64,000 bases of DNA from Acidobacteriota bacterium. GTDB taxonomy: Bacteria > Acidobacteriota > Thermoanaerobaculia > Multivoradales > J023. Shown piece by piece: positions 4,553 to 34,137 of the stretch. Below the pieces are notes generated by a model, which had not been told where the DNA came from, made no database searches, and saw only the letters and a program-made list of their open reading frames with translations. The stretch is taken from NCBI GenBank assembly GCA_038747035.1, contig JBCDKB010000001.1:2029-66028 (forward strand), read 5' to 3'. Each line of letters begins with the position of its first letter. Position 1 is the stretch's first letter. The translations under genes were made by a program, and so were the position numbers.

Positions 4553-6495
4553 TCGAAAGTAGCGCTCACGCCGCCGTCCGCGGCCACCCGGATGCTCAAG
4601 ACGTGGGAGCCGCCGGCGTCAAAGAGCCCGTCGACTTCGGCGGTTCGGGTCTGCCCGTCGCTGTAGACGTAGACCCGAAGCCGGGTGCCGCCGGCGGCGA
4701 CCTCGGCGTCCTTCGTCAAGCGGCCGGACGTTTTCTTGTCCCGCCCGAAGACGCCGGTGGCTTTCTTGATGAAAGCGAACCTCTCGTTCACGACCTGGTC
4801 GCCGCCGTGGAAGACGCTCAGCAGGCCCTCGGAGACTTCTGAAAAAAAGTCGACCCGGAGCGAAGATAAAGCCACCTCCTGCGTGGACGCCGTGCGATCG
4901 GCGCGCTCTCGAGGGGCCGACTCGGTCTCACTGTCGCCGCCGGAGCCGGTCCTCTTGCGGAAGCGGTCCTGCACCCGTTCCCGGGCGTCTTGCTCCCGCC
5001 GCTGGCCCTCTTCGGCGTCCGCCAGCAGCTGGGCGGCGCGCTCGTTCTCGGCGTCAAAATCCAGGACCAGCTGGGCGAGCTCCATGGCTTTCGCGTAGTC
5101 CTTGGAGGCCAATGCGGAGTCGGCCGAACGGAGCTGGTCGCGGGCCTGCGCCTCTTCAACCGTCAGGCCCTCGTTTTCGAGCATGCGCTCCGCTTCTTCA
5201 CGGAGGCGTCGAATTTCTTTATCGCCCGGCATGAAGACCAGGGCCTGGTCGAAATATTCGATCGCCCGCACCGCTTCACCGTCGGCGAGGGACGCTTCGC
5301 CCTTCTCCACGAGCGGGCGGTACTGGCTTTCGACCGAATCCATCGGGTCCACCGCTTCGACCGGTTCCTCGCCGCCAGGACGGAGAACGAAGAATGCGGC
5401 ACCGAGCACCGCCACCAAGGCGACGGCGACCAAGCCGATGATCAGTCCCTTGCTGAGACCGGGCGGCTCTTCCTCCGGCGGCGGCGCCCTCACCACCGAC
5501 GGCTGCCCGGTGAGCGTGCCCGTCGGGATGGCGCCGCTCGACGAGGTGTTGAGCGGATACGGGGCCCGGCCGGCCGGGGCGGCGGCCGGAGCCGGGGCGC
5601 CGGCGGGCTGCTGTGGCGGCGGTTCCGGCGGCGCCAGGAAAGAGGCCGTGCCGCCGTCGGCGCGACCCGGCGAGGCGAAGACCGCCCGGAGGTCCCGGGC
5701 CATCTCGGAGCCGCGGGCGTAGCGACGATTGGCGTCCTTTTCAAGGGCCTTCTCGAGCACCCCGCTCAGGCGAGCCGGCAGGCCCGCCACCAGCTGGCTC
5801 GGCGGCGTAAAGGCGTCATAGACGATGCGGTGCGTCACCATCGTCAAGTTGTCGCCCTGGAAAGGCTTCTTGCCGGTCACCATCTCGTAGAGCATCACGC
5901 CCAGCGAAAAAAGATCGGCTCGGTGGTCGACTTCTCGGCCCTGGATCTGCTCCGGCGCCATGTAGTTCGGAGTGCCGAGCAACTGCCCTTCCACGGTCAG
6001 GTTCGACTGCTCGACCCGGGCGATTCCGAAGTCCGTGATCTTGGCCTGCTTATCCGCCGTCAGGATGATGTTGGCCGGCTTGATGTCGCGGTGCACGACC
6101 CCTTTGCTGTGGGCATAGTCCAAGCCGTCGGCGATTTGCGCGATGATGTCCACCACAAAGCGCACGTCGAGTCGGCCCTGGCGCTGCATCAGCTGCTTCA
6201 GGTCCGTACCTTTGACGTACTCCATCGCGATGAAAAAATCACCGCTTGCGTCCTCGACGACGTCGTGGATCGTGACGATATTGGGATGGCTCAGGATGCC
6301 CGCGCTCTGGGCTTCCCGGAGGAAGCGCACCTTGAATTGCTCCCGGTCCGCGTCCTTGGCGGAGAAGCCGAGGCGAAAGGTTTTGAGCGCCAGCTGACGG
6401 CCGATGAGCGGATCTTTGGCCAGATAGACCTGACCCATAGCACCCTTGCCGAGTTCCCCTACGATTTCATATCGGCCAAGTTTGTTCAGGGTCAT
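4549..6495 (-). CDS. Ser/Thr protein kinase with a transmembrane segment, TPR-like region and C-terminal extracytoplasmic domain
   Basis: Kinase subdomains GELGKGAMGQVY, ALK, HRDIKPANIIL, DFGIA, GTPNYMAPE; a hydrophobic stretch GLIIGLVAVALVAVLGAAFFVL. The stop overlaps the fdhD start by 4 bp. Confidence 0.85.
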   Translation of the reverse strand: MTLNKLGRYEIVGELGKGAMGQVYLAKDPLIGRQLALKTFRLGFSAKDADREQFKVRFLREAQSAGILSHPNIVTIHDVVEDASGDFFIAMEYVKGTDLKQLMQRQGRLDVRFVVDIIAQIADGLDYAHSKGVVHRDIKPANIILTADKQAKITDFGIARVEQSNLTVEGQLLGTPNYMAPEQIQGREVDHRADLFSLGVMLYEMVTGKKPFQGDNLTMVTHRIVYDAFTPPSQLVAGLPARLSGVLEKALEKDANRRYARGSEMARDLRAVFASPGRADGGTASFLAPPEPPPQQPAGAPAPAAAPAGRAPYPLNTSSSGAIPTGTLTGQPSVVRAPPPEEEPPGLSKGLIIGLVAVALVAVLGAAFFVLRPGGEEPVEAVDPMDSVESQYRPLVEKGEASLADGEAVRAIEYFDQALVFMPGDKEIRRLREEAERMLENEGLTVEEAQARDQLRSADSALASKDYAKAMELAQLVLDFDAENERAAQLLADAEEGQRREQDARERVQDRFRKRTGSGGDSETESAPRERADRTASTQEVALSSLRVDFFSEVSEGLLSVFHGGDQVVNERFAFIKKATGVFGRDKKTSGRLTKDAEVAAGGTRLRVYVYSDGQTRTAEVDGLFDAGGSHVLSIRVAADGGVSATFE

Positions 6496-6589
6496 AGATT
6501 CGCCGGGCGCCAGAAGCCAGAAACTCTACGATTTTAGGAGCAGCTACCACCGGCGTCAAACAGCCGCATCCGATCCCGCGCCCCCTCGG

Positions 6590-6880
6590 CTAGCGTCGAG
6601 GCAAGAAAATGAGCCCGTGGAAGACGCCGAGCACGACGATTTCATCGTCGTCGCCGACCTGGTAGGCGATGCGAAAGTGGCCGTAGGTCAGCAGGTGGAT
6701 GTCGGGGCGATCCAAATACGGGTAGTGCTGCCCGAGGTGGGGCGAGCCGGAAAGGGAGACGACCTTGTTGAGGATCGACTCGACCGTTCGCATCGCCGTA
6801 TGCGGCCGATCCTGGGCGATGTATTCGTAAATATCGCGCAGGGACTCGGCGGCTTCCCGCGACCATCTGGGTTGGGCCAC
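6590..6880 (-). CDS. parE: Type II toxin, ParE/RelE superfamily
   Basis: 96 aa. The C-terminus HFRIAYQVGDDDEIVVLGVFHG is the classic ParE/RelE fold signature. It sits immediately downstream of a small antitoxin ORF with a 2-nt gap. Confidence 0.7.
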   Translation of the reverse strand: MAQPRWSREAAESLRDIYEYIAQDRPHTAMRTVESILNKVVSLSGSPHLGQHYPYLDRPDIHLLTYGHFRIAYQVGDDDEIVVLGVFHGLIFLPRR

Positions 6881-6882
6881 CG

Positions 6883-7185
6883 CTAGCTCCTTCGACCGCG
6901 GTGCCAGACGCGAAGCCGCCGGCGCATCTCGAGGTCGCCGAGCGTCCGGCCGGCGCCGATGTCCACGAGACCGCGGCCGATCATGCGGTCAAAGGCGAGC
7001 TCGCGCAGAATCTCGTCATAGGAGCTGTCGTCCGGCTGATCACCGACGATCGTCAAGATTCTGTGTTTGGCGGCGGACTCCAGGTGCCGGGGCTCGCTGT
7101 CCCCGGAGGCCTGGGCGCCGTCCTCCGGCGAAGCTGCGGTGACGTCCTGGTCGTCCCGCGGTCGAGTCACCGGTGGCTTGGGCAT
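6883..7185 (-). CDS. Putative antitoxin partner of ParE (ParD/addiction-module component-like)
   Basis: ~100 aa, start chosen at MPKPPVTRPRDD; the C-terminus SYDEILRELAFDRMIGRGLVDIGAGRTLGDLEMRRRL; tight coupling to the toxin gene. Confidence 0.5.
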   Translation of the reverse strand: MPKPPVTRPRDDQDVTAASPEDGAQASGDSEPRHLESAAKHRILTIVGDQPDDSSYDEILRELAFDRMIGRGLVDIGAGRTLGDLEMRRRLRVWHRGRRS

Positions 7186-7219
7186 CGTTTCTAGTGGGCC
7201 CGCTGGCTCGCTGGACGGA

Positions 7220-7672
7220 CTACTCGCTGATCGACAGCGCCTTGACGCCGTCGAGGCTGGCCCGGGGCGACACGTAGCCGATCGCACCCGGGTTCTTGCT
7301 GACCCAGGCGATGACCTCCGCGTCGTTCGAGAGCTCGGGCGGCGGCGAGTTGCGGCCGCTGAAAATCTGTTTCTGCCAATAGCTCTTGATCGACGAGACG
7401 GATCGGCTGTGCAGGTCTCGGGAGAGAAACTCCCGGACTTCAGATTTGCCGTCGAGGTCTACCGGCGCCGCCTTCAGATCCGAATCGGGCCAGCGCGAAC
7501 GCTTTTTGAGCAGCAAGGAGGAAGCTTGATTCTTGGAGAGGCTGTCGTGCGGCGTCTCAGGATGCGTAATCATCACGTACCCGGAGCTGTTTTGCGCAAC
7601 AGCGGTGCTGTTGGTTTGCACAGTCACAAGGACCGTGAGAGCGATTAAAGCGAGAAGATATTTCTTCATCAC
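7220..7672 (-). CDS. Small secreted PstS/PBP-like substrate-binding domain protein
   Basis: Signal peptide MMKKYLLALIALTVLVTVQTNSTAVAQ. The C-terminus IKSYWQKQIFSGRNSPPPEL ... NPGAIGYVSPRA resembles the phosphate-binding-protein-like standalone domain. The gene is conspicuously AT-rich in its 5' half relative to its neighbours. Confidence 0.5.
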   Translation of the reverse strand: MMKKYLLALIALTVLVTVQTNSTAVAQNSSGYVMITHPETPHDSLSKNQASSLLLKKRSRWPDSDLKAAPVDLDGKSEVREFLSRDLHSRSVSSIKSYWQKQIFSGRNSPPPELSNDAEVIAWVSKNPGAIGYVSPRASLDGVKALSISE

Positions 7673-7963
7673 CTCACCTCTACTTTTGAGAGCGGGCGCG
7701 ATAAAGACAGCCCCGAAAAGGGCGGGGCCAGTGTTCCTTGCCGCTGTATAGCCGAAGGTGGCGGTGCTTTAGCCGCCCAAAAGCGACCAGAACAACTGTT
7801 GCCAATCGACACGTCGCGGACTCGGGAGGCAGAAACCCTAGGAGAAGAGGGCACAGCGAGCCCAGACAGGAACGTCGAAGAGGAAGTATAACAGCTCGCT
7901 CCCCCTCTGTGCGTTCCCCTTAACCCTGTCAACGTCCATCCCGCCAACGAGATGGCGGCAAAG

Positions 7964-9049
7964 CTACCCGGCCACCCAGCCTCCGCCCAAGCAGACCTCT
8001 TTCTGGTAAACCACGGCCGCTTGGCCCGGGGCGATGCCGATGTCACTCTCTTCGAGCTGCACCTCGAAGTCGCCGCCCCGGTCGCTGCAGGTTGCCCGGT
8101 GTAGACGGGGGCCGTGCCGGATGCGCACAAACGCTTCGCCGGCGGTCAAGGGCTCGCCGATCCAGTGCATAGCTTTGGCGACGAATCGACCGTCCGCCAC
8201 CCCACCCATCCGATCGCCGTGGCGGACCCACAGCGCGTCGGACTCGATGTCCTTGTCCACCACGAACCATGGGCCGCCGCCGAGGCCGAGGCCGCGGCGC
8301 TGGCCGATCGTGTAGAACCAGTGGCCGCGGTGTTCACCGAGCGTCGCCCCTGTTTCGAGATCCCGGATCGGTCCCGGACGCTCGCCGAGGTGGGCGCGCA
8401 CAAAGTCACCGAAATCGACGCCGCCGAGGAAGCACAGGCCTTGACTGTCGCGGCGGGCGCGGTTCGGCAGACTGAGCGCCTCGGCGCGGCGACGGACCTC
8501 CGACTTATCGAGGTCGCCCAGTGGGAAGACCAGCCGCCGCAGCTGCCGTTGATGCAGGCGGTGGAGGAAATAGGTCTGGTCCTTCACCGGGTCGACGCCG
8601 CGCAAGAGCTCCGACTGCCCGTCGGGCCGACGCCGCGTGCGGGCGTAGTGGCCCGACGCGATCACGTCGAAATCCCCGAGCTCCGTCAAGCGATCGTCGA
8701 AGGCGCCGAACTTGATCCGTCGGTTGCAGAGAATGTCCGGACTTGGCGTCCTTCCGGCGCGCAGCTCGTCGAGCGCGTCCTCAATGACCAGCTCGCGGTA
8801 GGAGCGCTGGAGCGACACCACCGCCAACTCGACCCCCGCCCGGCGACAGACTTCCCGGGCGTAGCTGAGGTCGTCCTCCCAGGGACACTCGCCGAGGAAC
8901 GAGAGCTCGTCTTCGAGCCAAATTTTGAGATAGCACGCCAGCACGTCCCCCGGCGCCACCGGGCCGAGCTCCGGCACTTCGCCCGCCAGCAGACGGTGGA
9001 GGGCGACGGAGCTGTCGACCCCTCCCGAAAGGAGCACCGCGACGCGCAT
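7964..9049 (-). CDS. mnmA: tRNA 2-thiouridine(34) synthase MnmA
   Basis: PP-loop MRVAVLLSGGVDSS; CYLKIWLEDE; the C-terminus matches the MnmA architecture. Start chosen at MRVAV (9049), not the arginine-rich extension to 9262. Confidence 0.85.
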   Translation of the reverse strand: MRVAVLLSGGVDSSVALHRLLAGEVPELGPVAPGDVLACYLKIWLEDELSFLGECPWEDDLSYAREVCRRAGVELAVVSLQRSYRELVIEDALDELRAGRTPSPDILCNRRIKFGAFDDRLTELGDFDVIASGHYARTRRRPDGQSELLRGVDPVKDQTYFLHRLHQRQLRRLVFPLGDLDKSEVRRRAEALSLPNRARRDSQGLCFLGGVDFGDFVRAHLGERPGPIRDLETGATLGEHRGHWFYTIGQRRGLGLGGGPWFVVDKDIESDALWVRHGDRMGGVADGRFVAKAMHWIGEPLTAGEAFVRIRHGPRLHRATCSDRGGDFEVQLEESDIGIAPGQAAVVYQKEVCLGGGWVAG

Positions 9050-11203: not shown

Positions 11204-13075
11204 TCATGGCTCGGGCGTCAGCGACGACTCGAAGTCGCGGCTTGAAGGCGGAGTCGACTCGGCGTCGAGATAATCGGCGACGTTTTCCGACGGCTGGATC
11301 GGGCGCGGCCGGGCCAGGTGATAGCCCTGGCCGAAGTCGATATCGAGATCTTGCAGCGCCTGGAGCAGCGCGACGCTTTCGACATTCTCGGCGATCGTGC
11401 GCGCGTCGATCACGTGGGCCACCTTGTGGATCGAGTCCACCACCGCCCGCGACAGCTTCGAATGCAGCAACTCGCTGACGATATTGCCGTCGATCTTGAC
11501 GAAATCCACCGGCAGCTCGTGCAGGTAGCGGAACGACGACATGCCCGAGCCGAAGTCGTCGAGCGCCCAGCGACAGCGCAACCGGCGCACCTGCTCGATC
11601 ATCTCGGCGGCGCGGCGCAGGTTCGAGACGGCCGCCGTCTCCGTGATCTCGAAACAGAGCTTTTGCCCCGGCAGACCGGTCCGCTCCAGCTCCGAGGCGA
11701 TGCAGCGCGCCACATCGCGGTCGCCCACGGAAGCGCCCGACAGGTTGACCGTGCAGCAGTCGAGCACGTCGAGGAACGACTGGGACTGGGCCACCAGGAT
11801 CGACATGATGCGGCGGATCACCCAGCAGTCGATGGCGGGCATCAAGCCGAATCGCTCCGCCGCCGGCAGGAACTCCCCCGGCGAGTGGCGGGTGCCGTCG
11901 CGGTCGCGGAAGCGCAGCAGCACTTCGAAGTAGAGCGGACCATCCGCCACCAGCGACTTGATGGGCACGATGCGCTGCCACTCGAGCTCGAAGAGGTCTT
12001 GGTCCAGGGCCTGCTGCAGCTTCACGACCCAGTTCATTTGCCCTTGGTGACGGCGCACCTCGGCGGCATCTTTACGGTAGAGCTGGGTCCGCCCGCGGCC
12101 GCGCTGCTTGGCGAGGAAGCACGCCCGGTCGGCGGCGCCCGTCAGGTCATTGAGATCGGCGAAGTCGCCACTGATCGCCACCATGCCGATGGAGACGCCG
12201 ACGCTGAAGCTTTTGTCTTGCCAGACGAATCGGAAGTTGCGGAGCGCTTGGTGCACGTCTTCCGCCACGTGCTCGGCGACCGCCAGGGGGGTATCGTGGA
12301 TCAGCAGGCCAAACTCGTCGCCGCCCAGCCGGGCGAGCACGTCGGCGTCGCGCAGGCGCTCACGGATCAAGCTCGCGATCCACTGCACCAGCATGTCGCC
12401 GGCGGCGTGTCCACAGGTGTCGTTGACCACCTGGAACTGGTCCAGATCCATGTGGCAGAGCACGTCCCCGCGCGGCGCGCCGTCGTCGACGGGGAGCCAC
12501 GAGCCGTCCTGCTGCGCCCGCTCGAAGGCCTCCTCCACATGCTGTTCGAAGGCGCGCCGATTCAAGAGGCCGGTGAGGGCGTCGAACCGGGCGACCCGCG
12601 ATAGACGCTGCGCCAAACGTTCCCGGTCGCTGACGTCCCGGAGCACGAGCACCGCGCCGAGCAGTGGCAGGGGCCGACCGTCGGCCACCGGCTCGTCGTA
12701 GATCGGCCTGACCCCGCCCTCCACCACGAGGCGCTCGCCGTCGCCGCGCACCAAACGCGTACCCTCGGCCAGCGGCAGGGTCTCGCCGCGCCGGACGCAC
12801 TCGGCGATCTCGATTTCGAAATCCTCGTCGTCCAGCAGGGTCAGGACTTCATCGAGCGGCCGACTGCGGGCGTGCTCGAGGGTCCAGCCGACCAGTACCT
12901 CGGCCGCCGGGTTCAGCTCGTCGAGGCGTCCGTCCGGATCGAAGACCAAAACGGCTTCGCCGACGCTCGCCAAGGCGCTCCGCACCTTGCGCAGCATCCT
13001 GCCATCGTCTCGAGGTTCGTGGCCGGCCCGCGGCGGACTGAGCTCGGCCCGTCCAGAGGGAATCGTCGTAGACAC
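11204..13075 (-). CDS. PAS-GGDEF-EAL c-di-GMP signalling protein
   Basis: GGDEF region RLGGDEFGLL with an upstream LTGLLNRRAF; EAL region with motifs ...FEVLLR, DDFGSGMSSFRYL, KIDGNIV. Confidence 0.85.
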   Translation of the reverse strand: MSTTIPSGRAELSPPRAGHEPRDDGRMLRKVRSALASVGEAVLVFDPDGRLDELNPAAEVLVGWTLEHARSRPLDEVLTLLDDEDFEIEIAECVRRGETLPLAEGTRLVRGDGERLVVEGGVRPIYDEPVADGRPLPLLGAVLVLRDVSDRERLAQRLSRVARFDALTGLLNRRAFEQHVEEAFERAQQDGSWLPVDDGAPRGDVLCHMDLDQFQVVNDTCGHAAGDMLVQWIASLIRERLRDADVLARLGGDEFGLLIHDTPLAVAEHVAEDVHQALRNFRFVWQDKSFSVGVSIGMVAISGDFADLNDLTGAADRACFLAKQRGRGRTQLYRKDAAEVRRHQGQMNWVVKLQQALDQDLFELEWQRIVPIKSLVADGPLYFEVLLRFRDRDGTRHSPGEFLPAAERFGLMPAIDCWVIRRIMSILVAQSQSFLDVLDCCTVNLSGASVGDRDVARCIASELERTGLPGQKLCFEITETAAVSNLRRAAEMIEQVRRLRCRWALDDFGSGMSSFRYLHELPVDFVKIDGNIVSELLHSKLSRAVVDSIHKVAHVIDARTIAENVESVALLQALQDLDIDFGQGYHLARPRPIQPSENVADYLDAESTPPSSRDFESSLTPEP

Positions 13076-13578
13076 GTAGAGTCTAAGTCTTGCGCGGTAG
13101 GGAGCTGGTGGGGAAAGAGATCCTGGATCGGCGTAGCGTCAACGGCACCGCGGCAATCTATCAAACCGTCGGCTTCCCACCGAGGGCCCCGGTGGGTCCC
13201 TGGAAGCCAGCCTCGATACCCTTCATCTCAAGGGACTCGCCCGCCCACCCTTTGCGGGTCGTCCCGGGCTCTTTGGGACTCAATCCGTCGGCATTTACGC
13301 GGTTCCAGAGGCGTGCCCACCGCACAAATGAGACTCGATCTCAACAAACACTCAAACGACGCTAGCTCAAGTGAATCTACAAATATGCGGGGACCGAAGC
13401 TGGTGGTGGGCCCACAAAATTAGAAGCCCGCCGAGTTTTGCAGAACCCGGCGAGCCGCCAGAGTAACGCTCGACGACGCGTCGTGACCAGCCAGTCGAAC
13501 CGCGCCTGTTCGAGCACTAATACCGGCGCCTTCCTATACGGAAATCTCACATCCGTGGTTTGGCGCGAGGAGAACCCC

Positions 13579-14343
13579 GTGGATTTACCGACCCTCTCAA
13601 TCGGCCAATTCGACCTGGTCTACAACTTCTTTTCGCTAACGATCGCGACGATGTTCGCGTCGGGCATCTTCTTCTTTTTAGGCCAGCGCCTGGTCGCGCC
13701 GAAGTACCGCGTCGGCGTGATCGTTTCCGGCATTGTCGTCTTCGTCGCCGGCTACCACTATTATCGAATCTGGGAGAGCTGGCACGCCGCTTATACCTTG
13801 ACCGAAGGCTCCTACGTGGCGAGCGGCGTGCCGTTCAACGACGCTTATCGCTACGCCGACTGGCTGATCACCGTGCCGCTGCTGCTGATTGAGCTCATCG
13901 CCGTGCTCGGCCTCGCCAAGGCCATTTCCGGCCCGATGCTGCGCAACCTTTCGATCGCTTCCGTCATCATGATCGCCCTCGGCTACCCCGGCGAAGTCGC
14001 CAGTGACTCCGGCACGGCTTGGATTTTCTGGTTCCTCGCCATGATTCCGTTCCTCTACATCCTCTACGTGCTCTTCGCCCAGCTCAAGGATACGATCGCG
14101 AACGAAACCGGCGAAGTCGCGACGCTCTTCAAGCGAGCGCGCGCCGTCATCGCGATCTCCTGGTGGGTCTATCCGCTCGCCTTCGTGCTGCCGATCCTCG
14201 GCGTGCTTTCGGGTGCGGTCGGCGAGGTCGGACTTCAGGTCGGCTACAGCATCGCCGACCTGATCGCCAAGGCGTTCTACGGCGTCGTGATTTTCCAGAT
14301 CGCGCGCGCCAAGTCGGACGCGGACGGCTACGAACCCGCCTGA
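13579..14343 (+). CDS. Microbial (type I) rhodopsin of the xanthorhodopsin / Gloeobacter-rhodopsin clade; predicted light-driven proton pump
   Basis: Helix C RYADWLITVPLLLIELIAV gives a D/T/E triad at the BR 85/89/96-equivalent positions. Helix G SIADLIAKAFYG carries the Schiff-base Lys. His in GYHYYRIW. The N-terminus LSIGQFDLVYNFFSLTIATMFASGIFFF resembles GR/XR. GTG start at 13579 with AGGAG 7 nt upstream; the longer TTG-initiated ORF from 13438 was rejected. Confidence 0.9.
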   Translation: MDLPTLSIGQFDLVYNFFSLTIATMFASGIFFFLGQRLVAPKYRVGVIVSGIVVFVAGYHYYRIWESWHAAYTLTEGSYVASGVPFNDAYRYADWLITVPLLLIELIAVLGLAKAISGPMLRNLSIASVIMIALGYPGEVASDSGTAWIFWFLAMIPFLYILYVLFAQLKDTIANETGEVATLFKRARAVIAISWWVYPLAFVLPILGVLSGAVGEVGLQVGYSIADLIAKAFYGVVIFQIARAKSDADGYEPA

Positions 14344-14365
14344 TCGGGCGCCGTCACTAGTGAAA

Positions 14366-14386
14366 GGGCCGGGCGAGTCCCGGCCC
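14366..14386 (+). terminator. Stem-loop GGGCCGGG-cgagt-CCCGGCCC immediately after the rhodopsin stop
   Basis: Perfect 8-bp GC stem with a 5-nt loop 22 nt downstream of the stop. A second imperfect hairpin lies at ~14418-14440. May be a partial terminator or attenuator ahead of crtIB. Confidence 0.45.
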
Positions 14387-14482
14387 CCTTCTCCCCAGCT
14401 AGAGTTTTCCTATCGGCATGCTTCGGCGTGCTCCCAGACGGCGTCCTGACGCCGTGCCCCCGCCTGTTCTAAGGAGCTTTCC

Positions 14483-17053
14483 GTGAAGCCAATGAAAGCC
14501 CTCGTCATCGGCGCCGGATTCGGTGGCCTCGCCGCGGCCCTCCGCTTGCGCGCCCGCGGCTACGACGTCACGATCTTCGAGCGTCAAGATCGGCCCGGCG
14601 GCCGGGCGGTGGTCCACCGCCGCGGCGGCTATACGTTCGACGCCGGTCCGACCATCATCACCGCGCCTTTTCTGCTCGACGAGCTTTTCGAGCTCTTCGG
14701 GCGACGTACCGATGACTACGTCACGCTGCGGTCCCTCGAACCGTGGTATCGGATCCGCTTCGACGGCGGTGAGCACCTCGACTACAGCGGCAACCTCGAC
14801 ACGATGGTCGAGGAGATTCGCCGATTCGACGGTCGTGACGCGGACGGCTACCTCCGTCTCCTGGAACACACCCGCAAGATCTACAAAGAGGGCTTCGAGC
14901 GCCTCGGCGACCAGCCGTTCCACGACTTCGGCACCATGATGAAGCTCGCCCCGGCCTTGGCGCGGTTGCGCAGCGACCGCAGCGTCTACCGCCAGACCGC
15001 CCGCTACATCAAACATCCGCTGCTGCGCCAGGCCCTGAGCTTCCATCCGCTGCTCGTCGGCGGCAATCCGTTCACCACCACGTCTATCTATTCCCTGATT
15101 CACTACCTCGAGCGCACCGGCGGAGTGCATTTCGCCATGGGGGGAACCGCCGCCCTCGTCGATGGTTTGGTGCGCCTCTTCGAGGACCAGGGGGGCACCA
15201 TCCGCTACGACGCCACCGTCGACGAAATCCTCGCCGAAGGGGCCACGGGCGGTCGCCGTCGCGCCCGGGCGAAGGGCATCCGTCTGGCCGACGGTGAAGT
15301 GGTCGAGGCCGACGTGGTCGTCGCCAACGCCGACGCGCCCTTCGTCTATAAAAACCTCGTGGCCCCCGAACATCGGGGCAAGTGGAATGACCGGCGCATC
15401 CTGGGCCGCAAGTACTCGATGGGACTTTTTGTACTCTACTTCGGCGCTACGCGCCAGTATGACGAGCTGGCGCACCACGAGATTCTTCTCGGACCCCGCT
15501 ACCGCGGCCTCATCAACGACATCTTCGAGCGCAAAGTCCTTGCGGACGATATGAGTCTTTACCTCCACGCGCCGACCCGCACCGATGCCTCGCTCGCGCC
15601 GGAGGGCTGCGAATCCATGTACGCGCTGGTGCCCGTGCCTAACCTCGAGGCCGGCATCGACTGGTCCGACGCCGGCCCGAGACTGCGGGATCGCCTCGTT
15701 GAACACCTCTCCCAAACGGTCTGCCCGGGGCTCGACTCGGCGATCACCGAAGACTTCTACGTCACCCCGGAGCACTTCAAGAATCGCCTGCTGTCGGTCA
15801 ACGGCGCCGGATTCTCCATCCAACCCGTGCTGACCCAATCCGCCTACTTCCGCTTCCACAACCGCTCCGAGGAGCTGCGGGACCTCTACCTCGTCGGGGC
15901 GGGGACCCATCCGGGCGCCGGCGTCCCGGGGGTCCTGTGCTCCGCGAAAGTCCTCGACCGGCTGCTCGACGAGCGCGAGGACGCCGGGCGGCGACCCGCG
16001 GTGACCGTGCCGGACGTCGGGGCGAGGCAGCCCGAGGCCCTCGATCTGCGTCCGGCCGCCCGCGCCGATCTGGGATCCGACGCGCCCGACTTCTTCGCCG
16101 CGCCCGCCGCCGCCCTGATGGCGAAACGCGCCAAGACATTCAACTTCGCCGCCCGCCTGCTGCCGCGGGCCACGCGGGACCAGGTGGCGACCCTCTACCG
16201 CTTCTGCCGCGTCGTTGACGACCTCGCCGACGACCTCCCCGACCCCGGGGAGAGTCGCGCTTGGCTCAACCGGGTCTACCTCGACCTGGAACGGGGACAC
16301 TCCGAGCTGACGCCGATTTCGGACTTCCTCGACCTCGCCGAGCGGCGGAACATCCCGCGGGAACTCGCCCTCGAGCTCGTCCGCGGCCTGCGTTCAGACC
16401 TCGGCCGCGTGCGCTGCGGCTCAGTGGACGAGCTGGTGCGCTATTGCTACCAGGTCGCGTCGACCGTCGGCGTCATGATGTGCAAGGTCCTCGGCGCGGC
16501 CTCTCCCCAGGCGCCGCTCTACGCCGTCGATCTCGGCATCGCCATGCAGCTGACCAACATAGCCCGCGACGTCGCAGAAGACCTCGAGCACGATCGCATC
16601 TATCTCCCGGCCGCCTGGGTCGACGGAGAAACGGTTCGCCGGGGGGTCGGGGGCGACGCCCGCGCCGCCGCGACGGTCTACAAGACGGTGGAGAGGCTCC
16701 TCGACTTGGCCCACGACTACTACCGGAGCGCCGATTCGGGCATCGAGCTCCTGCCCGCGGGTGCCCAGTGGTCGATCCTCACCGCCGGCCGCAGCTACGA
16801 GGCCATCGGGCACCGCATCCGCGGCCTCGGCCCGGGTTATTGGCAGGGCCGCGTCTTTACCGGCACCGGCCGCAAAGTCGCCGAAAGCCTCAAGGCCGCC
16901 TCCACCCTGACGGCGCGCCAGATCGCCACCGCCTTCGGGCGCGACCCGCGGCCGCGGCGTCACCGCGACCGCCTCCACCTGCCGCTCGCCACGTTGCCGA
17001 GCGCCGCCCTCTGGCGACCGGCCGAATTCGGCCCGGCGCGGGGTCTCGGATGA
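14483..17053 (+). CDS. crtIB: Phytoene desaturase (CrtI) fused in-frame to phytoene synthase (CrtB)
   Basis: N-terminus KALVIGAGFGGLAAALRL (FAD Rossmann) and CrtI-family body to ~aa 495. P/A-rich linker. C-terminus FAARLLPRATRDQVATLYRFCRVVDDLADD ... YCYQVASTVGVM ... NIARDVAEDL is the squalene/phytoene synthase fold. Single 856-aa ORF with no stop. GTG start with AAGGAG. Confidence 0.85.
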   Translation: MKPMKALVIGAGFGGLAAALRLRARGYDVTIFERQDRPGGRAVVHRRGGYTFDAGPTIITAPFLLDELFELFGRRTDDYVTLRSLEPWYRIRFDGGEHLDYSGNLDTMVEEIRRFDGRDADGYLRLLEHTRKIYKEGFERLGDQPFHDFGTMMKLAPALARLRSDRSVYRQTARYIKHPLLRQALSFHPLLVGGNPFTTTSIYSLIHYLERTGGVHFAMGGTAALVDGLVRLFEDQGGTIRYDATVDEILAEGATGGRRRARAKGIRLADGEVVEADVVVANADAPFVYKNLVAPEHRGKWNDRRILGRKYSMGLFVLYFGATRQYDELAHHEILLGPRYRGLINDIFERKVLADDMSLYLHAPTRTDASLAPEGCESMYALVPVPNLEAGIDWSDAGPRLRDRLVEHLSQTVCPGLDSAITEDFYVTPEHFKNRLLSVNGAGFSIQPVLTQSAYFRFHNRSEELRDLYLVGAGTHPGAGVPGVLCSAKVLDRLLDEREDAGRRPAVTVPDVGARQPEALDLRPAARADLGSDAPDFFAAPAAALMAKRAKTFNFAARLLPRATRDQVATLYRFCRVVDDLADDLPDPGESRAWLNRVYLDLERGHSELTPISDFLDLAERRNIPRELALELVRGLRSDLGRVRCGSVDELVRYCYQVASTVGVMMCKVLGAASPQAPLYAVDLGIAMQLTNIARDVAEDLEHDRIYLPAAWVDGETVRRGVGGDARAAATVYKTVERLLDLAHDYYRSADSGIELLPAGAQWSILTAGRSYEAIGHRIRGLGPGYWQGRVFTGTGRKVAESLKAASTLTARQIATAFGRDPRPRRHRDRLHLPLATLPSAALWRPAEFGPARGLG

Positions 17054-18249
17054 CGACCAAGCCGGTCGTTATCGCCGGCGCCGGGGCCGCCGGCCTGAGC
17101 CTGGCGGTCCACCTCCTGGACTCGGGCTGGACCGACCCCCTGGTCTTGGTCGAGCCCCGTGAACACTACCGGGACGATCGCACCTGGTGCTATTGGCATT
17201 TCGGAGACCATCCATTCGAGGGCTGCGTGAGTCGCCGGTGGCGCCGGTGGCGCCTTCGCGCCGCTGACCGCGACGTGGTCAGCGGCTCAACGCAGCATCC
17301 CTACTGCCATATCCGCGGCGGCGACTTCTACGACCATGCCCTGGAGCGGCTGCGCTCCCATCGCCAGGTGCACCTAGAGCTCGGCGCCCGGGTGATCGAC
17401 GTTGAAGACAAAGCCGACGGCGTGCGCGTTGAAACCACCGGCGGCGTGATCGACGGGCGCTACCTTTTCGACTCCCGCCCGACGCCCGTCGCCGACGGAC
17501 TCATCCAGCACTTCGCGGGCCTCTTCGTGCGGGCCGAGGCCGACGTCTTCGACCCCTCCACGCCGACCCTCATGGACTTTCAAGCGATCCGCCCCACCGT
17601 CGACGGCGTGCCGCTGACCGGCGTCCACTTCATCTACCTGCTTCCATTCTCAGCCCGGGAAGCGCTGGTCGAGTCCACGCTCCTGACGCCGAGGGACGAG
17701 TTCTCCGGCTTGGCTTCGGTGGAGACGGGTCATGTCAACGCCGCCCTCGCCTACCTCGAACGGGACTACCCGGCGGCACACGTCGCCGTGCTTCGGCGGG
17801 AAAGGGGCGCGATCCCCATGGCGATCCCGGCGGAGGTCCGCTCGACCCCATCGCCCGACTTCCCGAAACGGCGGTCCCACCGACCCTCCGCCGTGATTCC
17901 GATCGGAACCGCCGCCGGCTGCGCCCGCCCGTCGAGCGGCTACGCCTTCGACGCCATCCAGCGCACCTCGGGGGCGATGGCCCGCGCCCTGACCCTCGGA
18001 CACGATCCCCGCGACGTCCAGGTCTGGAGACGACGAGCGCGCTGGCTGGACAGAATCTTTCTTTCCTTCCTCGAGTCACGGCCCGAGCTGGCGCCTTCGG
18101 TCTTTACGTCACTCTTCGATCACCTGCCCGGGGACCTGATGCCGCGTTTCCTCTCCGACCGCGAGTCGATCCCTGAGGTGATTCGCATGATGAGCGCCAT
18201 GCCGGTGGGGGTCTTTACCCGGGAATGGCTGAGGGTCCAAACGGCCTAG
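17050..18249 (+). CDS. crtY: Lycopene beta-cyclase (CrtY/CrtL family)
   Basis: MTTKPVVIAGAGAAGLSLAVHLL (FAD dinucleotide fold). The ATG overlaps the crtIB stop (ATGA). Length ~399 aa. The longer ORF from 16261 is an out-of-frame artefact overlapping crtB. Confidence 0.75.
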   Translation: MTTKPVVIAGAGAAGLSLAVHLLDSGWTDPLVLVEPREHYRDDRTWCYWHFGDHPFEGCVSRRWRRWRLRAADRDVVSGSTQHPYCHIRGGDFYDHALERLRSHRQVHLELGARVIDVEDKADGVRVETTGGVIDGRYLFDSRPTPVADGLIQHFAGLFVRAEADVFDPSTPTLMDFQAIRPTVDGVPLTGVHFIYLLPFSAREALVESTLLTPRDEFSGLASVETGHVNAALAYLERDYPAAHVAVLRRERGAIPMAIPAEVRSTPSPDFPKRRSHRPSAVIPIGTAAGCARPSSGYAFDAIQRTSGAMARALTLGHDPRDVQVWRRRARWLDRIFLSFLESRPELAPSVFTSLFDHLPGDLMPRFLSDRESIPEVIRMMSAMPVGVFTREWLRVQTA

Positions 18250-18267
18250 CTCGGTTGACTTTCCACG

Positions 18268-19302
18268 ATGCCAGCCCCATTCACCGTCACCTTCGCGTCG
18301 CCCGCTTCCGGAAATGCGACCCCTGAAACCGGCCGAGTCCCCAAAGACTGGTGGCGGGGCCACGCGCGGCTCCTGACCGTCCTCAGCGGGCTCGCCGCCG
18401 CCGCTGTCATCGCTTGGGGATCCCCTCAGCTGAAGACCCAGCTGCTGCTCCTCGCCGTCGGCGTCGCCGTCCTCGGCGTTCCCCACGGAGCCCTGGACCA
18501 TGTGATCGGCCGCCGACTCCTCCGGCGGCCCCTCGGCCCCTATTGGGCGCCCGCCTTCTTCGGCACCTACCTCGGCCTCGCGGCGCTGGTGCTGGTGGCG
18601 TGGTGGCACTGGCCGATCGCGTCGCTGGTCGCTTTTCTCGGGATATCAGCGCTCCACTTCGGACTCGGCGACGTCCGCCGGGAGCTCTCGGCGTCGACGC
18701 TTTTCCCCCTTGAGGTGGCCGCCCGCGGTGCGCTGCCCCTCGCGGCGCCCATGCTTTTCCACCCGCAGGAAGTCGCCCACCTCTTCGGCGCATTGGTCGC
18801 CGGCCCTGGGCCGACCGCGGAGGCGGTTTGGCGATACGCGGCGATCATCGCCGCCATGCTGGCGCCCGCCCTCGGCTGGTCCCTCTATCACCACGCCCGG
18901 CGAACGTTCGCCCGCGCACCCGGCCCCCACGGCGAGGTGATCGCCGAGGTCCTCGGCCTGCTGGTTCTCTTTTGGGCCGCTCCGCCGCTCATCGCTTTCC
19001 TCCTCTACTTCTGCGGCTGGCACTCGGCTCGACACACCCTTGAAACGGCCGAAGAGCTGATGCCGGGTCCACTGCGTGAGGGACTCTCGACGTTTATTCG
19101 TCTGGCGGTCCCGCTCACCGTCGCGACGCTGGCCCTCGCCGCCGTCGCCTGGATGCTGCTCACTACGCACGGCCAAGGCGTGGACCCGGCGCTGCTCCAG
19201 GTGGTCTTTATCGGACTTGCGGCGCTGACCGTGCCCCATATGATGCTGTGCGCCGCCGCCCAGAGGCTGCCGGAGGAGTCACCGGCCTCCGTCCGGTCCT
19301 AA
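18268..19302 (+). CDS. blh: Brp/Blh-family beta-carotene 15,15'-dioxygenase (retinal-forming)
   Basis: Multi-pass membrane protein with conserved His-containing motifs VPHGALDH, ALHFGLGD, CGWHSARH, VPHMML. Confidence 0.8.
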   Translation: MPAPFTVTFASPASGNATPETGRVPKDWWRGHARLLTVLSGLAAAAVIAWGSPQLKTQLLLLAVGVAVLGVPHGALDHVIGRRLLRRPLGPYWAPAFFGTYLGLAALVLVAWWHWPIASLVAFLGISALHFGLGDVRRELSASTLFPLEVAARGALPLAAPMLFHPQEVAHLFGALVAGPGPTAEAVWRYAAIIAAMLAPALGWSLYHHARRTFARAPGPHGEVIAEVLGLLVLFWAAPPLIAFLLYFCGWHSARHTLETAEELMPGPLREGLSTFIRLAVPLTVATLALAAVAWMLLTTHGQGVDPALLQVVFIGLAALTVPHMMLCAAAQRLPEESPASVRS

Positions 19303-19423
19303 GCGTTCGGTCCTAGGCGTTCGGTTCTCAGCGATCCAGTCGCGGTGGAGGACACCGCAGCCCCGCGCCCTGGGACCGATCCCGAGCAGGCGGGCCCCCA
19401 GGGACCGAGCTAAACTCGGGGCC

Positions 19424-19837: not shown

Positions 19838-19997
19838 GAACTTCAACTGACGGCTGTGTCAAAGACGTCACGGGGCGTCGCCAGATCATCACGCCTTGTC
19901 AGGGCCGGGTTTACGAACGTCACGCTTTGGCGACGAAGGGCCGGGCGGTGACTCTAGATTGGCCTCGGCTTCTAAGGTCAGCGTCAGGAGGCCTGAC

Positions 19998-21131
19998 ATG
20001 ACCAACCCGACTCTGAACGACACCGCACACAAAACCGCCCCCGAGACCGGGATCGCCAGCCTCGGCGTGGCGTTACCTTCCCTCTTCCTCGAATTGGATG
20101 ACCTGGCTGAGCTTCGCGGCGCCGATCCCGCCAAGTTCCGCTTCGGCCTCGGCTGCCACCAGATGGCGCTCTGCGACGCCGAAGAAGGCGTCGTCGATCT
20201 GGCCCAGCGCGCCGCCCAGCGCGCCCTCGACCGCTGGTCGGGAAGCGTTGAAGACATTGGCCTGATCGCCGTCGGCACCGAATCCGCGGTCGATATGTCC
20301 CGTCCGCTTTCGGCGTGGGTCGCCGAAGCGATCGGCGTGCGCGGCGCCGTGCGCAGCTACGAAGTCAAGCACGCTTGCTACGGCGGCACCTTGGCCCTCC
20401 GGCAGGCCATTGAGTGGCGCCGCTCCGGCGCCGCCCGCGGCAAGGCCGCTTTGGTGATCGCCGCCGACGTGGCTCTCTATGCCCCGGAAGACCCCGGTGA
20501 ACCGACCCAAGGGGCCGGCGCCGTCGCCTTCATCGTCGCCGAGCCGGAGGTCGCCCGCGTCGACCTCGAGACCGCCGTTTTCTCCGAACCCGCCTTCGAC
20601 TTCTGGCGCCCCGTGGGCGAAGACTTCCCGCGGGTCGACGGCAAGTTCAGCCTCGACTGCTATAAGCGCGCCACCCTGGAATGCCTCGGCCAGTGGGCCG
20701 GGGACGGCGCGGCGGTCGACGCCCTCGAAGCCCTCGACGCGGCCTGCTTCCACGTGCCCTTCCCCAAGATGGTGCAAAAAGCGGTGCGCCACGTGGGCGA
20801 AGAGCTCGGCGCCGAGGCCGACTGGGCCGACGACTACTTCAAACGGCGGATCGCGCCGTCCATGGGGTGGAATCAAAAGGTCGGCAACGCCTACACCGCG
20901 AGCCTGTGGATTTCCGTCGCCCAGGCCCTCGGCGGCCGGGCCGACGGCGAACGCCTGATCGCCTTTTCCTACGGCTCCGGCTACGGCTCCGAGCTCTTGG
21001 GACTCGAGGCGGGCCCGCGCGCCGCCGACGCCGCGTGGTTCACCGACGTCGAGCAGGACCTCGAAAGCCGGCGCCGCCTCGACATCGCCGCCTACCGCCA
21101 GCTGCGCGGCCAGGCGAAGAAAGCCGCCTAG
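19998..21131 (+). CDS. mvaS: Hydroxymethylglutaryl-CoA synthase
   Basis: Motifs GTESAVDMSRP, HACYGGT, FSYGSG; ~378 aa; CAGGAGG RBS ahead of the ATG at 19998. Confidence 0.85.
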   Translation: MTNPTLNDTAHKTAPETGIASLGVALPSLFLELDDLAELRGADPAKFRFGLGCHQMALCDAEEGVVDLAQRAAQRALDRWSGSVEDIGLIAVGTESAVDMSRPLSAWVAEAIGVRGAVRSYEVKHACYGGTLALRQAIEWRRSGAARGKAALVIAADVALYAPEDPGEPTQGAGAVAFIVAEPEVARVDLETAVFSEPAFDFWRPVGEDFPRVDGKFSLDCYKRATLECLGQWAGDGAAVDALEALDAACFHVPFPKMVQKAVRHVGEELGAEADWADDYFKRRIAPSMGWNQKVGNAYTASLWISVAQALGGRADGERLIAFSYGSGYGSELLGLEAGPRAADAAWFTDVEQDLESRRRLDIAAYRQLRGQAKKAA

Positions 21132-25947: not shown

Positions 25948-27300
25948 ATGTCGTCGTCGCCCGAAGCCCGTCCCCATCAGCATGCTTACGTCGCGAAAGT
26001 CGTCGACCTGATCTCGCCGGACTCCCAGCATCTCGTCAACGCCGAGCTCGACGACGCCACCCGCGCGGTGCTCGCCAACGACGCCGCGGCTGTCCGGGAG
26101 CTTTCCGGCTCCTTCGCCGTCACCGCCCGCGACGGTGAGATCGTGCGCATGGCGCGCAGCCTCGACCGCCCCCTCCGCTTTTTCCTCGCCAAGGAGGTCG
26201 AAGGGCCGATGCTCGTCGTCGCCGAGCGCATCGACCAGATCGGTGAGTACCTGGACGGCCTCGGCTACGGCGATCAATTCCATCCGTCCTACACCCGCAT
26301 GGTGCCGGCGCACCACATCACCACGCTGCGCCTGGTGGGCTGCCCGGACCCGAACCCGGAGCACCGGCGCTTCTTCGATCCGCCCATGGGCACACTCCCC
26401 GCCGACCTCGACGTGATCGGCGAGCGCTACGTCGGCGCGCTGCTCGACGAAGTCGGCCAGTGGCTCAAAGCCCAGGATCCGCAGCAGCCGATCGGCGTGC
26501 TCTTCTCCGGCGGCATCGACTCCGGCGCCGTCCTCCTGGCCCTGCACCACCAGATTCTCGCCCAGGGCCAAAGCGCCGCGCGCCTTAAAGCCTTCACCCT
26601 GGCGGTCGAGAGCGGCGGCCAAGACCTCTCCCAGGCCCGAGAATTCCTGCGTCGCACCGACCTCGAGTTCCTCGGGGAAGCCATCGACGTTCCGGCCGAG
26701 GACCTCGACCCCCTCGGCGCCGTCGAAGTGATCGAGGACTACAAGCCCCTCGACGTGGAATGCGCCGCCGTCGCCCTCGCCGTGCTCGACGGCATCCGCT
26801 CGCGCTACCCCGACTGGGAGCTGGTCGTCGACGGCGACGGCGGTGATGAGAATCTGAAGGACTATCCGATCGAAGAGAACCCCGAGCTCACGATCCGCAG
26901 CGTCGTCAACAACTCGATGCTCTACCAAGAGGGCTGGGGCGTCGAGGCGGTGAAGCATTCCCAAACCTACAGCGGCGGCTACTCCCGCGGCTGCGTGCGC
27001 ACCTGGGCGCCGGTCCGGCGATTCGGCTTCACGGGATTTTCACCGTTCACGCGTCCGAACCTGCTCGCGGTCGCCGAGGCGATCCCCTTCAAGGCGCTCA
27101 CCGAAGGCAGTCACGACAAACTCTATGCCCTCAAGGGTGACATCGTGCGACGCGGTATGCAGCGCTTGCTCGGCGTCGAGATGCCGATTTTCGAGAAGCG
27201 CCGATTCCAGCACGGCGCCCTGCCGCCGACCCTCAACCACCCCTTCGACGTGCCCCGCCACCACTACCGGCGGCACTTCCTGAGTCTCTACGCCAGCTGA
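25948..27300 (+). CDS. Asparagine-synthetase-domain (AsnB-like, PP-loop ATP pyrophosphatase) protein lacking the N-terminal Cys glutaminase domain
   Basis: PP-loop VLFSGGIDSGAVLLAL; ~450 aa. No MCG N-terminus, so it is not a class-II glutamine amidotransferase. Confidence 0.65.
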   Translation: MSSSPEARPHQHAYVAKVVDLISPDSQHLVNAELDDATRAVLANDAAAVRELSGSFAVTARDGEIVRMARSLDRPLRFFLAKEVEGPMLVVAERIDQIGEYLDGLGYGDQFHPSYTRMVPAHHITTLRLVGCPDPNPEHRRFFDPPMGTLPADLDVIGERYVGALLDEVGQWLKAQDPQQPIGVLFSGGIDSGAVLLALHHQILAQGQSAARLKAFTLAVESGGQDLSQAREFLRRTDLEFLGEAIDVPAEDLDPLGAVEVIEDYKPLDVECAAVALAVLDGIRSRYPDWELVVDGDGGDENLKDYPIEENPELTIRSVVNNSMLYQEGWGVEAVKHSQTYSGGYSRGCVRTWAPVRRFGFTGFSPFTRPNLLAVAEAIPFKALTEGSHDKLYALKGDIVRRGMQRLLGVEMPIFEKRRFQHGALPPTLNHPFDVPRHHYRRHFLSLYAS

Positions 27301-27301
27301 C

Positions 27302-28270
27302 GTGCACGCCTTCGATCGGCGCCTGCGGGCGCAGCGGCCCGCGAAAATACCGCCCGAATCCGGGCGGCCGATCGCGGCGCAGGTCGAGCTGGAGCGGACG
27401 CCCGAAGGGGACCTCGAGCGCGCCCTGACGATTTTTCTCGCCGGACGGGAATGCCCGTTCACCTGCATCTTCTGCGACCTGTGGCGCCACACCACCGACG
27501 CGCCGACGCCCCCCGGCGCGATCCCGGAGCAGATCCGCATCGCCCTCGAAGAACACGCGCCGAAGGGCGCCCCGCCGGTTGAGAGCGTGAAGCTTTACAA
27601 CGCGTCGAATTTCTTCGACGCCGGCTCCGTGCCGCCGGCTGACGACGCGAAGATCCTCGACCTGGTCGGCGGGCTCCGCCGGGTGATCGTCGAGTGTCAC
27701 GCCAAACTCGTCGGCCGACGGGCCGCCAGATACGCCGAGCGCCTAGGCGGCGCCGGATCGCGCCTCGAAGTCGCCGTCGGCTTCGAGACCGTGCACCCCC
27801 AAGCCCTGGCCCAGCTCAACAAGCGGGTCACCGTCAACGACCTGCGCGCCGCCTCCCGCCGCCTGCGCGAAATGGACGCCGACCTGCGGGCCTTCGTCCT
27901 GATCGGCGTGCCGTTTATCGACCTCGGCGACGAGGAGGCGTGGGTCCTGCGCAGCGTCCAGGAAGCGCTCGACTGCGGCGCGCGGGTGGTGAGCTTGATC
28001 CCGATGCGCAGCGGCGAGTCGGAATTGGTCCGACTCGAACGCGAGGGCCTGTGGACACCCCCGGATCTCGACCGCGTCGAGGCGGCCTACACCCGCGCCC
28101 GGGAGCTCGCGCCGGACCGGGTCTTCCTCGACACCTGGGACCTCGACAAGCTCCGCCGCGCCCCCGGGGACGGACGTCGGGTCGAACGACTCCGAGGTCA
28201 ACAGCTCGGGGCCTTGAAGCAGGGCGGCGCGGCCGAAACAGCCGGCCGGGCCGGCGGGGCGGCGGCGTGA
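27302..28270 (+). CDS. Radical SAM enzyme
   Basis: CPFTCIFC (CxxxCxxC) near residue 60. GTG start 1 nt after the AsnB-like stop. ~320 aa. Confidence 0.6.
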   Translation: MHAFDRRLRAQRPAKIPPESGRPIAAQVELERTPEGDLERALTIFLAGRECPFTCIFCDLWRHTTDAPTPPGAIPEQIRIALEEHAPKGAPPVESVKLYNASNFFDAGSVPPADDAKILDLVGGLRRVIVECHAKLVGRRAARYAERLGGAGSRLEVAVGFETVHPQALAQLNKRVTVNDLRAASRRLREMDADLRAFVLIGVPFIDLGDEEAWVLRSVQEALDCGARVVSLIPMRSGESELVRLEREGLWTPPDLDRVEAAYTRARELAPDRVFLDTWDLDKLRRAPGDGRRVERLRGQQLGALKQGGAAETAGRAGGAAA

Positions 28271-33027: not shown

Positions 33028-33080
33028 CGACAGCTCTAAAGACACCGCACTTCGCGATAGCCCGCCGTGAAAGGACCCCG

Positions 33081-34091
<1,011 letters not shown>

Positions 34092-34137
34092 GCCGTCGGC
34101 TGCGGACAGTTCGACTGAAGTTGGACTGGAGGCCACC

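Follow-up and report, generated by a model that had tools for sequence, protein, structure and literature searches.

A probable four-gene rhodopsin photosystem cassette with a CrtI-CrtB fusion and a predicted retinal-only xanthorhodopsin in an uncultured Acidobacteriota bacterium

Proton pumps of the xanthorhodopsin family are represented by Salinibacter xanthorhodopsin (XR, 3DDL), Gloeobacter rhodopsin (GR, 6NWD) and Kin4B8 (7YTB), all three of which bind a carotenoid antenna. The rhodopsin photosystem cassette, in which an opsin gene is followed by crtE-crtI-crtB-crtY-blh, with or without idi, is familiar from proteorhodopsin clusters, and this type of cassette has been known since the mid-2000s. 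The locus described here, four same-strand genes at positions 13579-19302 of a 64,000-nt stretch of Acidobacteriota bacterium DNA (contig JBCDKB010000001.1; hereafter the window, meaning the whole stretch that was analyzed), belongs to both of these known kinds. Its gene order, direction and pathway logic are those of the cassette, but crtE and idi are missing and crtI and crtB are fused, leaving four open reading frames (ORFs) in place of six. The features particular to it, namely an Acidobacteriota host, the crtE-less four-ORF layout and the CrtI-CrtB fusion, each have a precedent. To judge from its genes and their motifs, the locus is very probably a rhodopsin photosystem cassette of an uncultured member of the Acidobacteriota, in which a retinal-making operon would serve a green-absorbing proton pump that uses retinal alone.

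Two lines of published work bear on this locus. The Kin4B8 study reported that a bulky Trp or Phe at the fenestration position rules out a carotenoid antenna, that the Kin4B8 G153F mutant loses carotenoid binding, and that Gly is estimated to occur in only 55% of environmental XRs (bioRxiv 10.1101/2022.08.24.505090). Vollmers et al. (2013) had described an XR "subgroup II" with mostly Trp156, an altered helix-F slot and conserved clusters with retinal genes, the hosts of which are mostly marine Proteobacteria and eukaryotes (PMC3646047). [quoted passage not shown] Pelagisphaera), where a single ORF in a rhodopsin/retinal operon likewise encodes an N-terminal CrtI and a C-terminal CrtB, and where the fusion was called distinctive of verrucomicrobial PR-1 operons (PMC10284914). 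Eukaryotic CrtIBY and CrtIBY-Blh fusions from thraustochytrids and Thecamonas have the same I-then-B order, and the I-B-Y-Blh domain order of the Thecamonas protein is the operon order of the window; the cyclase domain of the eukaryotic fusions is of the CrtYc/d type, however, whereas that of the window is a PF05834 CrtY (PMC10016063). The mentions of "crtIB" in the latter paper were set aside, all of them referring to eukaryotic crtIBY.

The ORF listing and family scans placed the opsin gene at 13579-14343 (+), a single 856-aa crtIB ORF at 14483-17053 (+), crtY at 17050-18249 (+) and blh, the final gene of the cassette, at 18268-19302 (+). The crtIB TGA is overlapped by the crtY ATG at 17050 (ATGA, in the context ggATGAcg), so that crtY is predicted to be translationally coupled to crtIB, and the blh ATG at 18268 lies 18 nt downstream of the crtY TAG. 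An earlier note, made from the letters alone, had proposed these genes, these two short junctions and a hairpin between opsin and crtIB; the gene coordinates hold, all of the peptides it quoted occur in the ORF translation, both junctions are present, and the hairpin is found in the minimum free energy (MFE) fold of the spacer. The extreme E-values and the recurrence of the gene order in dozens of independent genomes establish that the cassette at these coordinates is real and not a chance arrangement.

The 254-aa opsin lies inside an ORF spanning 13438-14343, with its best start at the GTG at 13579, which is preceded by GAGGAG, containing a GGAG ribosome-binding site. It matches Pfam Bac_rhodopsin (PF01036, E = 1.4e-36) and is 100% identical to NCBI MEM1176711.1, annotated as "MAG: bacteriorhodopsin-like [Acidobacteriota bacterium]". 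A phmmer search of PDB returned XR (3ddl, 2.9e-79), GR (2.5e-76) and Kin4B8 (4.5e-75), with psXR also among the best matches, while proteorhodopsins reached only about 1e-23 and bacteriorhodopsins about 1e-13. The opsin is therefore nearer to XR, GR and TR than to proteorhodopsin, NaR, ClR or BR. These matches, together with an identity of 51-52% to XR, GR and Kin4B8, agree with the XR/GR-type assignment first suggested by the resemblance of helix A to XR and GR. When the opsin was aligned with 120 database homologues, every one of the equivalents of XR His62, Asp96, Thr100, Glu107, Asp236 and Lys240 proved to be kept, and those of H62, D96, T100 and E107 are present in the window opsin and in all 123 aligned sequences, so that none of the previously proposed helix-C Asp/Thr/Glu (DTE), helix-B His and helix-G Lys positions turned out to be misassigned. 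With the characterized XR-family pumps the window opsin shares its N-terminal helix A, its counterion pair (His-Asp), the DTE motif, the Schiff-base Lys and the Leu at the tuning site. The position equivalent to proteorhodopsin 105 is Leu, the green-absorbing state. No NDQ or NTQ motif is present in the opsin and no transducer gene is adjacent. Since the DTE motif, the His-Asp counterion and the Schiff-base Lys are all kept, the protein is expected to be an outward proton pump, with a predicted absorption in the green.

Whether such an opsin also binds a carotenoid antenna had been considered undecidable from sequence in the earlier note, which pointed to the equivalent of XR Gly156 as a residue to check. 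That residue aligns to Trp in the window opsin and in its approximately 70 nearest relatives. The five residues T160, N191, G201, I205 and Y207, which are common to XR, GR and Kin4B8 and line the carotenoid groove of helices E and F, are replaced in the window opsin by M, R, W, L and F, respectively. Fenestrated XRs are recognized by Gly156 and by this groove, and the window opsin has neither. With Trp as the fenestration residue and the helix-E/F groove replaced and filled, retinal-only function is predicted, and the matter can be regarded as largely settled at the level of sequence: the opsin is classed as a non-fenestrated XR, which should use retinal alone. In this it differs from XR, GR and Kin4B8, and it resembles, by traits, the subgroup II XRs (PMC3646047), with which it has in common Trp156, differences at all six named helix-F slot positions and linkage to retinal genes; the hosts of that subgroup, mostly marine Proteobacteria and eukaryotes, differ from the Acidobacteriota host seen here. 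A neighbor-joining tree, computed without support values, divides the XR family into two sister branches. One carries Gly and contains XR, GR, Kin4B8, Deinococcales and cyanobacteria; in the other, where Trp predominates, the window groups with Planctomycetota, Melainabacteria, Myxococcota and further Acidobacteriota, and a single Gly subclade, made up of Blastocatellia-type Acidobacteriota, is nested there.

The second gene is one unbroken frame of 856 codons (14483-17053), with AGGAG 9 nt 5' of its GTG start. Its translation scores 590 bits against TIGR02734 (crtI_fam) over residues 6-502 and 195 bits against PF00494 (SQS_PSY, squalene/phytoene synthase) over residues 548-792, giving a layout of phytoene desaturase (approximately 1-495), variable linker (approximately 496-540) and phytoene synthase (approximately 541-856). 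The Asp-rich motifs of CrtB (VVDDLADD, RDVAED) and the GxGxxG of CrtI are present. The NCBI version of the protein has 853 aa, starting from the ATG at 14492, and is labeled "phytoene desaturase family protein" only. A database search with the 856-aa protein gave, among its 120 best matches, 119 fusions that are 800-873 aa long and carry both Pfam domains, so that public data hold at least 119 fused CrtIB clusters at 90% identity, and the three fused matches that were looked up all lie within opsin-(crtE)-crtIB-crtY-blh cassettes. The linker, found between the conserved C-terminus of CrtI (SAKVLDRLL) and the N-terminus of CrtB (...AKTFxxAxxLLP), is 20-55 residues long and unconserved. The fusion is hence not an assembly artefact. 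Within our set of loci, the window shares the fused arrangement with six others (L001, L003, L004, L005, L007 and L049), while 16 further loci have crtI and crtB as separate genes. An internal start for CrtB at a retained Met (approximately position 16109) was considered and rejected, there being no Shine-Dalgarno sequence upstream of it. The CrtIB fusion is published yet under-recognized, and it is far more widespread than the single 2023 report implies; that report concerned verrucomicrobial proteorhodopsin operons (PMC10284914), whereas the partner here is an XR-family opsin, in an Acidobacteriota cassette of a crtE-less clade.

The product of crtY (399 aa) matches Pfam Lycopene_cycl (PF05834) over its full length (E = 5.8e-52, 177.5 bits), and the gene occupies the same position in all related cassettes. 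It is probably a divergent member of the CrtY type, whose predicted role as a lycopene beta-cyclase rests partly on its invariant place between crtB and blh. The blh product scores 206.8 bits against TIGR03753 (cutoff 95.25) and 3.4e-59 against PF15461; its His73, His130 and His252 never vary among 30 cassette-linked homologues, of which 28 also have His256. The spacing of these residues (H-57-H...H-4-H) matches the iron-ligand pattern of the characterized marine 66A03 Blh. With these family assignments, the expectation that crtIB, crtY and blh cover the steps from geranylgeranyl diphosphate (GGPP) to retinal is upheld. The reported absence of crtE from the window is likewise borne out by Pfam scans of every coding-like ORF and by a tblastn search of the window with a cassette crtE, which returned nothing (best E = 0.4), and crtE is also absent beside the cassettes of L085 and L086, which blh closes as well. 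An HMG-CoA synthase-like gene is found at 19896-21131, two genes past blh, with a sub-cutoff NCBIfam score (249.7 versus 360 bits); the window holds no further mevalonate-pathway gene beside it, and it is not kept beside the cassette in relatives.

Between the opsin gene and crtIB lies a spacer of 139 nt with a GC-rich stem-loop at 14366-14386 (+), which starts 22 nt past the opsin stop and has an 8-bp stem and a 5-nt loop (GGGCCGGG-CGAGU-CCCGGCCC). Strong GC hairpins of unrelated sequence occur 9-30 nt past the opsin stop in L001, L003, L004, L005 and L007, and the post-opsin folds of these relatives are 2-5 standard deviations more stable than shuffles; the Melainabacteria rows were left out of this screen, their crtI start coordinates being too far downstream. 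Since the position of the hairpin is kept among relatives and its sequence is not, it probably acts as an attenuator or partial terminator, or else as a 3' stabilizer. A consensus scan found no sigma-70-like promoter and nothing promoter-like in the spacer, although that consensus may not suit Acidobacteriota. Upstream of the opsin, an alignment of the four closest loci (the window, L001, L002 and L003) contains a single conserved block, TGMATCTA-N13-GCCGAAG-N8-GGGCCCA, at 13372-13420 (+), approximately 200 nt 5' of the opsin start. This candidate regulatory motif is found a single time in the 64-kb window, where chance would give 0.17, and is shared with L001-L003 only, which have it at an equivalent upstream site; speculatively, it may be an ECF-like (extracytoplasmic function) or other non-sigma-70 promoter. 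No Rfam family reached its gathering score in the window, and the opsin flanks gave chance-level matches only. The upstream region also contains a terminator-like inverted repeat with a 13-bp stem (13425-13456, -), at which no minus-strand gene ends, and at the other end of the cassette the blh stop codon is spanned by a tandem repeat with 3.1 copies of the 14-nt unit CGTTCGGTCCTAAG (19290-19333; Tandem Repeats Finder score 60).

A scan of a genome collection for opsin loci yielded 80 loci, and the order opsin-crtI-crtB-crtY-blh is present in more than 25 of them. Its carriers are Acidobacteriota, Planctomycetota (among them the cultured Saltatorellus ferox), Melainabacteria/Obscuribacterales, and further loci whose bins were assigned to Spirochaetales or other taxa. 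XR-family opsins are numerous among the metagenome-assembled genomes (MAGs) of Acidobacteriota in this collection, and a freshwater survey mentions opsins in Acidobacteriota MAGs in passing. In an AroC search, all of the nearest hits likewise went by the name "Acidobacteriota bacterium". The Planctomycetota-type loci have crtE between opsin and crtI, that is, the classical six-gene form; the Acidobacteriota clade formed by the window, L001, L003, L004, L005 and L007 has no crtE and carries crtI and crtB as one ORF. From this distribution, the four-ORF cassette is best read as a derived, streamlined opsin-crtE-crtI-crtB-crtY-blh module from which crtE would have been lost and in which crtI and crtB became fused. 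The window, L085 and L086 have identical four-gene boundaries and wholly different neighbors. Because exact boundaries recur in three different genomic contexts, the cassette appears to be a separate unit, relocated or transferred, that has moved whole. No meaningful direct or inverted repeats flank it, no tRNAs are found in the window, and none of the scanned ORFs was recognized as an integrase or transposase gene. In comparisons with L001, L003, L004 and L005, approximate ratios of nonsynonymous to synonymous divergence (dN/dS) were 0.10-0.23 for opsin, 0.17-0.26 for crtIB, 0.37-0.44 for crtY and 0.38-0.44 for blh, and all four genes are under purifying selection; a dN/dS of 1.52 for L004 blh was discarded as an ORF-extraction artefact (pN = 0.68). 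The neighboring PAS-GGDEF-EAL, MMPL, HIT, HMG-CoA synthase and alanine racemase genes were considered as further parts of the system and rejected, being absent from the loci of relatives.

The genomic linkage of the retinal genes is associated with the amino acid that occupies the fenestration site. When the comparison was restricted to loci having 5 kb or more of sequence beside the opsin, at least one of crtI, crtB and blh was adjacent in 27 of the 34 Trp/Phe-type loci and in none of the 20 Gly-type loci (Fisher P = 5.5e-9, a value that is not corrected for phylogeny and therefore overstated). The window opsin, with its linked retinal genes, differs in this respect from the classical Gly-type loci. 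A possible account of this pattern is that a cassette yielding only beta-carotene would offer no xanthophyll or ketocarotenoid for an antenna, favoring a closed, retinal-only pump, and that the hosts of Gly-type pumps, cyanobacteria and Deinococcales for example, would be ones already producing xanthophylls or ketocarotenoids. We tentatively put forward two linked readings, which as a pair are somewhat doubtful: that the streamlined, crtE-less, CrtI-CrtB-fused four-ORF photosystem may have spread whole through an uncultured Acidobacteriota lineage, and that fenestration and cassette linkage may be mutually exclusive across the XR family. In the Gly-type Acidobacteriota/Blastocatellia loci (L008, L011, L012, L017, L053 and L067), crtI, crtB and blh are not nearby, and a CrtY-like gene lies approximately 1.4 kb downstream of the XR gene.

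As we picture the system, the CrtB domain at the C-terminus of the fusion would join two molecules of host-supplied GGPP into phytoene, which the N-terminal CrtI domain would desaturate to lycopene. CrtY would then cyclize lycopene to beta-carotene, and Blh would cut the 15,15' bond of beta-carotene to give two molecules of all-trans-retinal. Retinal would attach to the helix-G lysine of the opsin, and the holoprotein would act in the light as an outward proton pump adding to the proton-motive force. The hairpin would lower read-through, so that the opsin, an abundant structural protein, would be produced at higher levels than the catalytic enzymes. Several results weigh against this reading. 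The crtY product falls below the NCBIfam equivalog cutoffs (41 versus 215 for TIGR01789 and 71.7 versus 209.5 for TIGR01790), no polyprenyl synthase (PF00348) was found by Pfam scan in any coding-like ORF of the 64-kb window, no T-run or U-tract follows the hairpin, at which the terminator scan makes no call, and the window hairpin itself is not exceptional against shuffles (z = -0.7, a sliding-window measure). Synonymous distances of approximately 0.75-1.7 are near saturation, which is what makes the dN/dS values approximate, and the branches of the neighbor-joining tree carry no support values. The missing synthase, set beside the crtE of related Planctomycetota cassettes, could mean that the cassette is a recently acquired relic, non-functional in its host or reliant on outside supply. 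This is very unlikely, given four intact ORFs, dN/dS of 0.10-0.44 against relatives at a dS of approximately 1, and the retention of the crtE-less form by six or more Acidobacteriota genomes and by further fused-crtIB cassettes (L082-L084).

Membership of the XR family and the identity to three antenna-binding proteins would suit a dual-chromophore xanthorhodopsin with a carotenoid antenna like that of XR, GR and Kin4B8. With Trp in place of Gly156 and the groove residues replaced, however, and with Gly-to-Phe/Trp substitutions destroying binding in published experiments, such an antenna is extremely improbable, the more so as the cassette is predicted to yield beta-carotene only and contains no ketolase or hydroxylase. 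That the rhodopsin is instead a sensor, or a pump of Na+, Cl- or inward protons, is scarcely credible: the DTE motif, the carboxylate donor and the His partner fit characterized outward H+ pumps, and neither an NDQ/NTQ motif nor a transducer gene accompanies them. The expression of the locus leaves more room for an alternative, in which opsin and crt/blh are separate units, the hairpin is a full terminator and crtIB-crtY-blh has a promoter of its own in the 139-nt spacer. The strength of the GC hairpin, the presence of hairpins at the same place in relatives and the AGGAG ribosome-binding site of crtIB all speak for it; the stem without a T-run and the lack of a promoter-like site in the spacer, the latter qualified by the doubtful fit of the sigma-70 consensus to Acidobacteriota, speak against it, as does the fact that the four genes always co-travel in the same direction. 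Separate units are accordingly judged unlikely, though with appreciable weight, and the preferred reading remains a single cassette with a retinal-making operon and a predicted retinal-only green proton pump.

Other features were noted around the cassette and in related loci. A PAS-GGDEF-EAL protein is encoded at 11204-13075 (-), divergent from the opsin over a 500-bp spacer; relatives lack this neighbor, and L085 has a hybrid histidine kinase in its place. Other fused-crtIB cassettes contain a 309-aa MerR-family regulator (L081, 1954-2883; L082, 3245-4174; L083, 3245-4174; all on the minus strand), divergent from and upstream of a fasciclin gene and the opsin, which could be a LitR/CarH-like light regulator; the window has no counterpart of it. 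Farther from the cassette, a row of asparagine-synthase-like, radical-SAM and FAD-dependent halogenase-like ORFs at 25948-29700 may be a small natural-product or peptide-modification cluster, and a dip in GC content to 0.617 (flanks approximately 0.69) at 6001-8000, around a ParE toxin gene (6590-6880), may mark an acquired toxin-antitoxin island. A single ORF at 45005-46846 combines chorismate-binding and aminotransferase class IV domains in a PabB-PabC-type fusion. DUF4129, DUF4350, MoxR AAA ATPase and DUF58/VWA genes at 31328-35427 form a MoxR-VWA module, and a second VWA protein is encoded at 301-2508.

The suggestion that this locus would represent an unusual physiology for its host was overstated: the opsin is already in NCBI, many Acidobacteriota MAGs have XR opsins, the cassette type is long known and the fusion has been published (PMC10284914). 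The present understanding of how such systems work is unchanged by the locus. What it adds is a probable rhodopsin photoheterotroph among the Acidobacteriota, together with the recognition that the CrtI-CrtB fusion, of which a single report exists, from Verrucomicrobiota proteorhodopsin operons, is also found in XR-type cassettes and is frequent in metagenomes. As a compact, naturally optimized module leading from GGPP to rhodopsin, it is potentially useful in synthetic biology. Should the link between a closed fenestration and a retinal operon survive phylogenetic correction, it would help to predict antenna use of environmental rhodopsins from sequence, and the spread of the four-ORF photosystem, if true, would mean that a phylum known for its chlorophototrophs (Chloracidobacterium) has a second form of phototrophy, based on rhodopsin.

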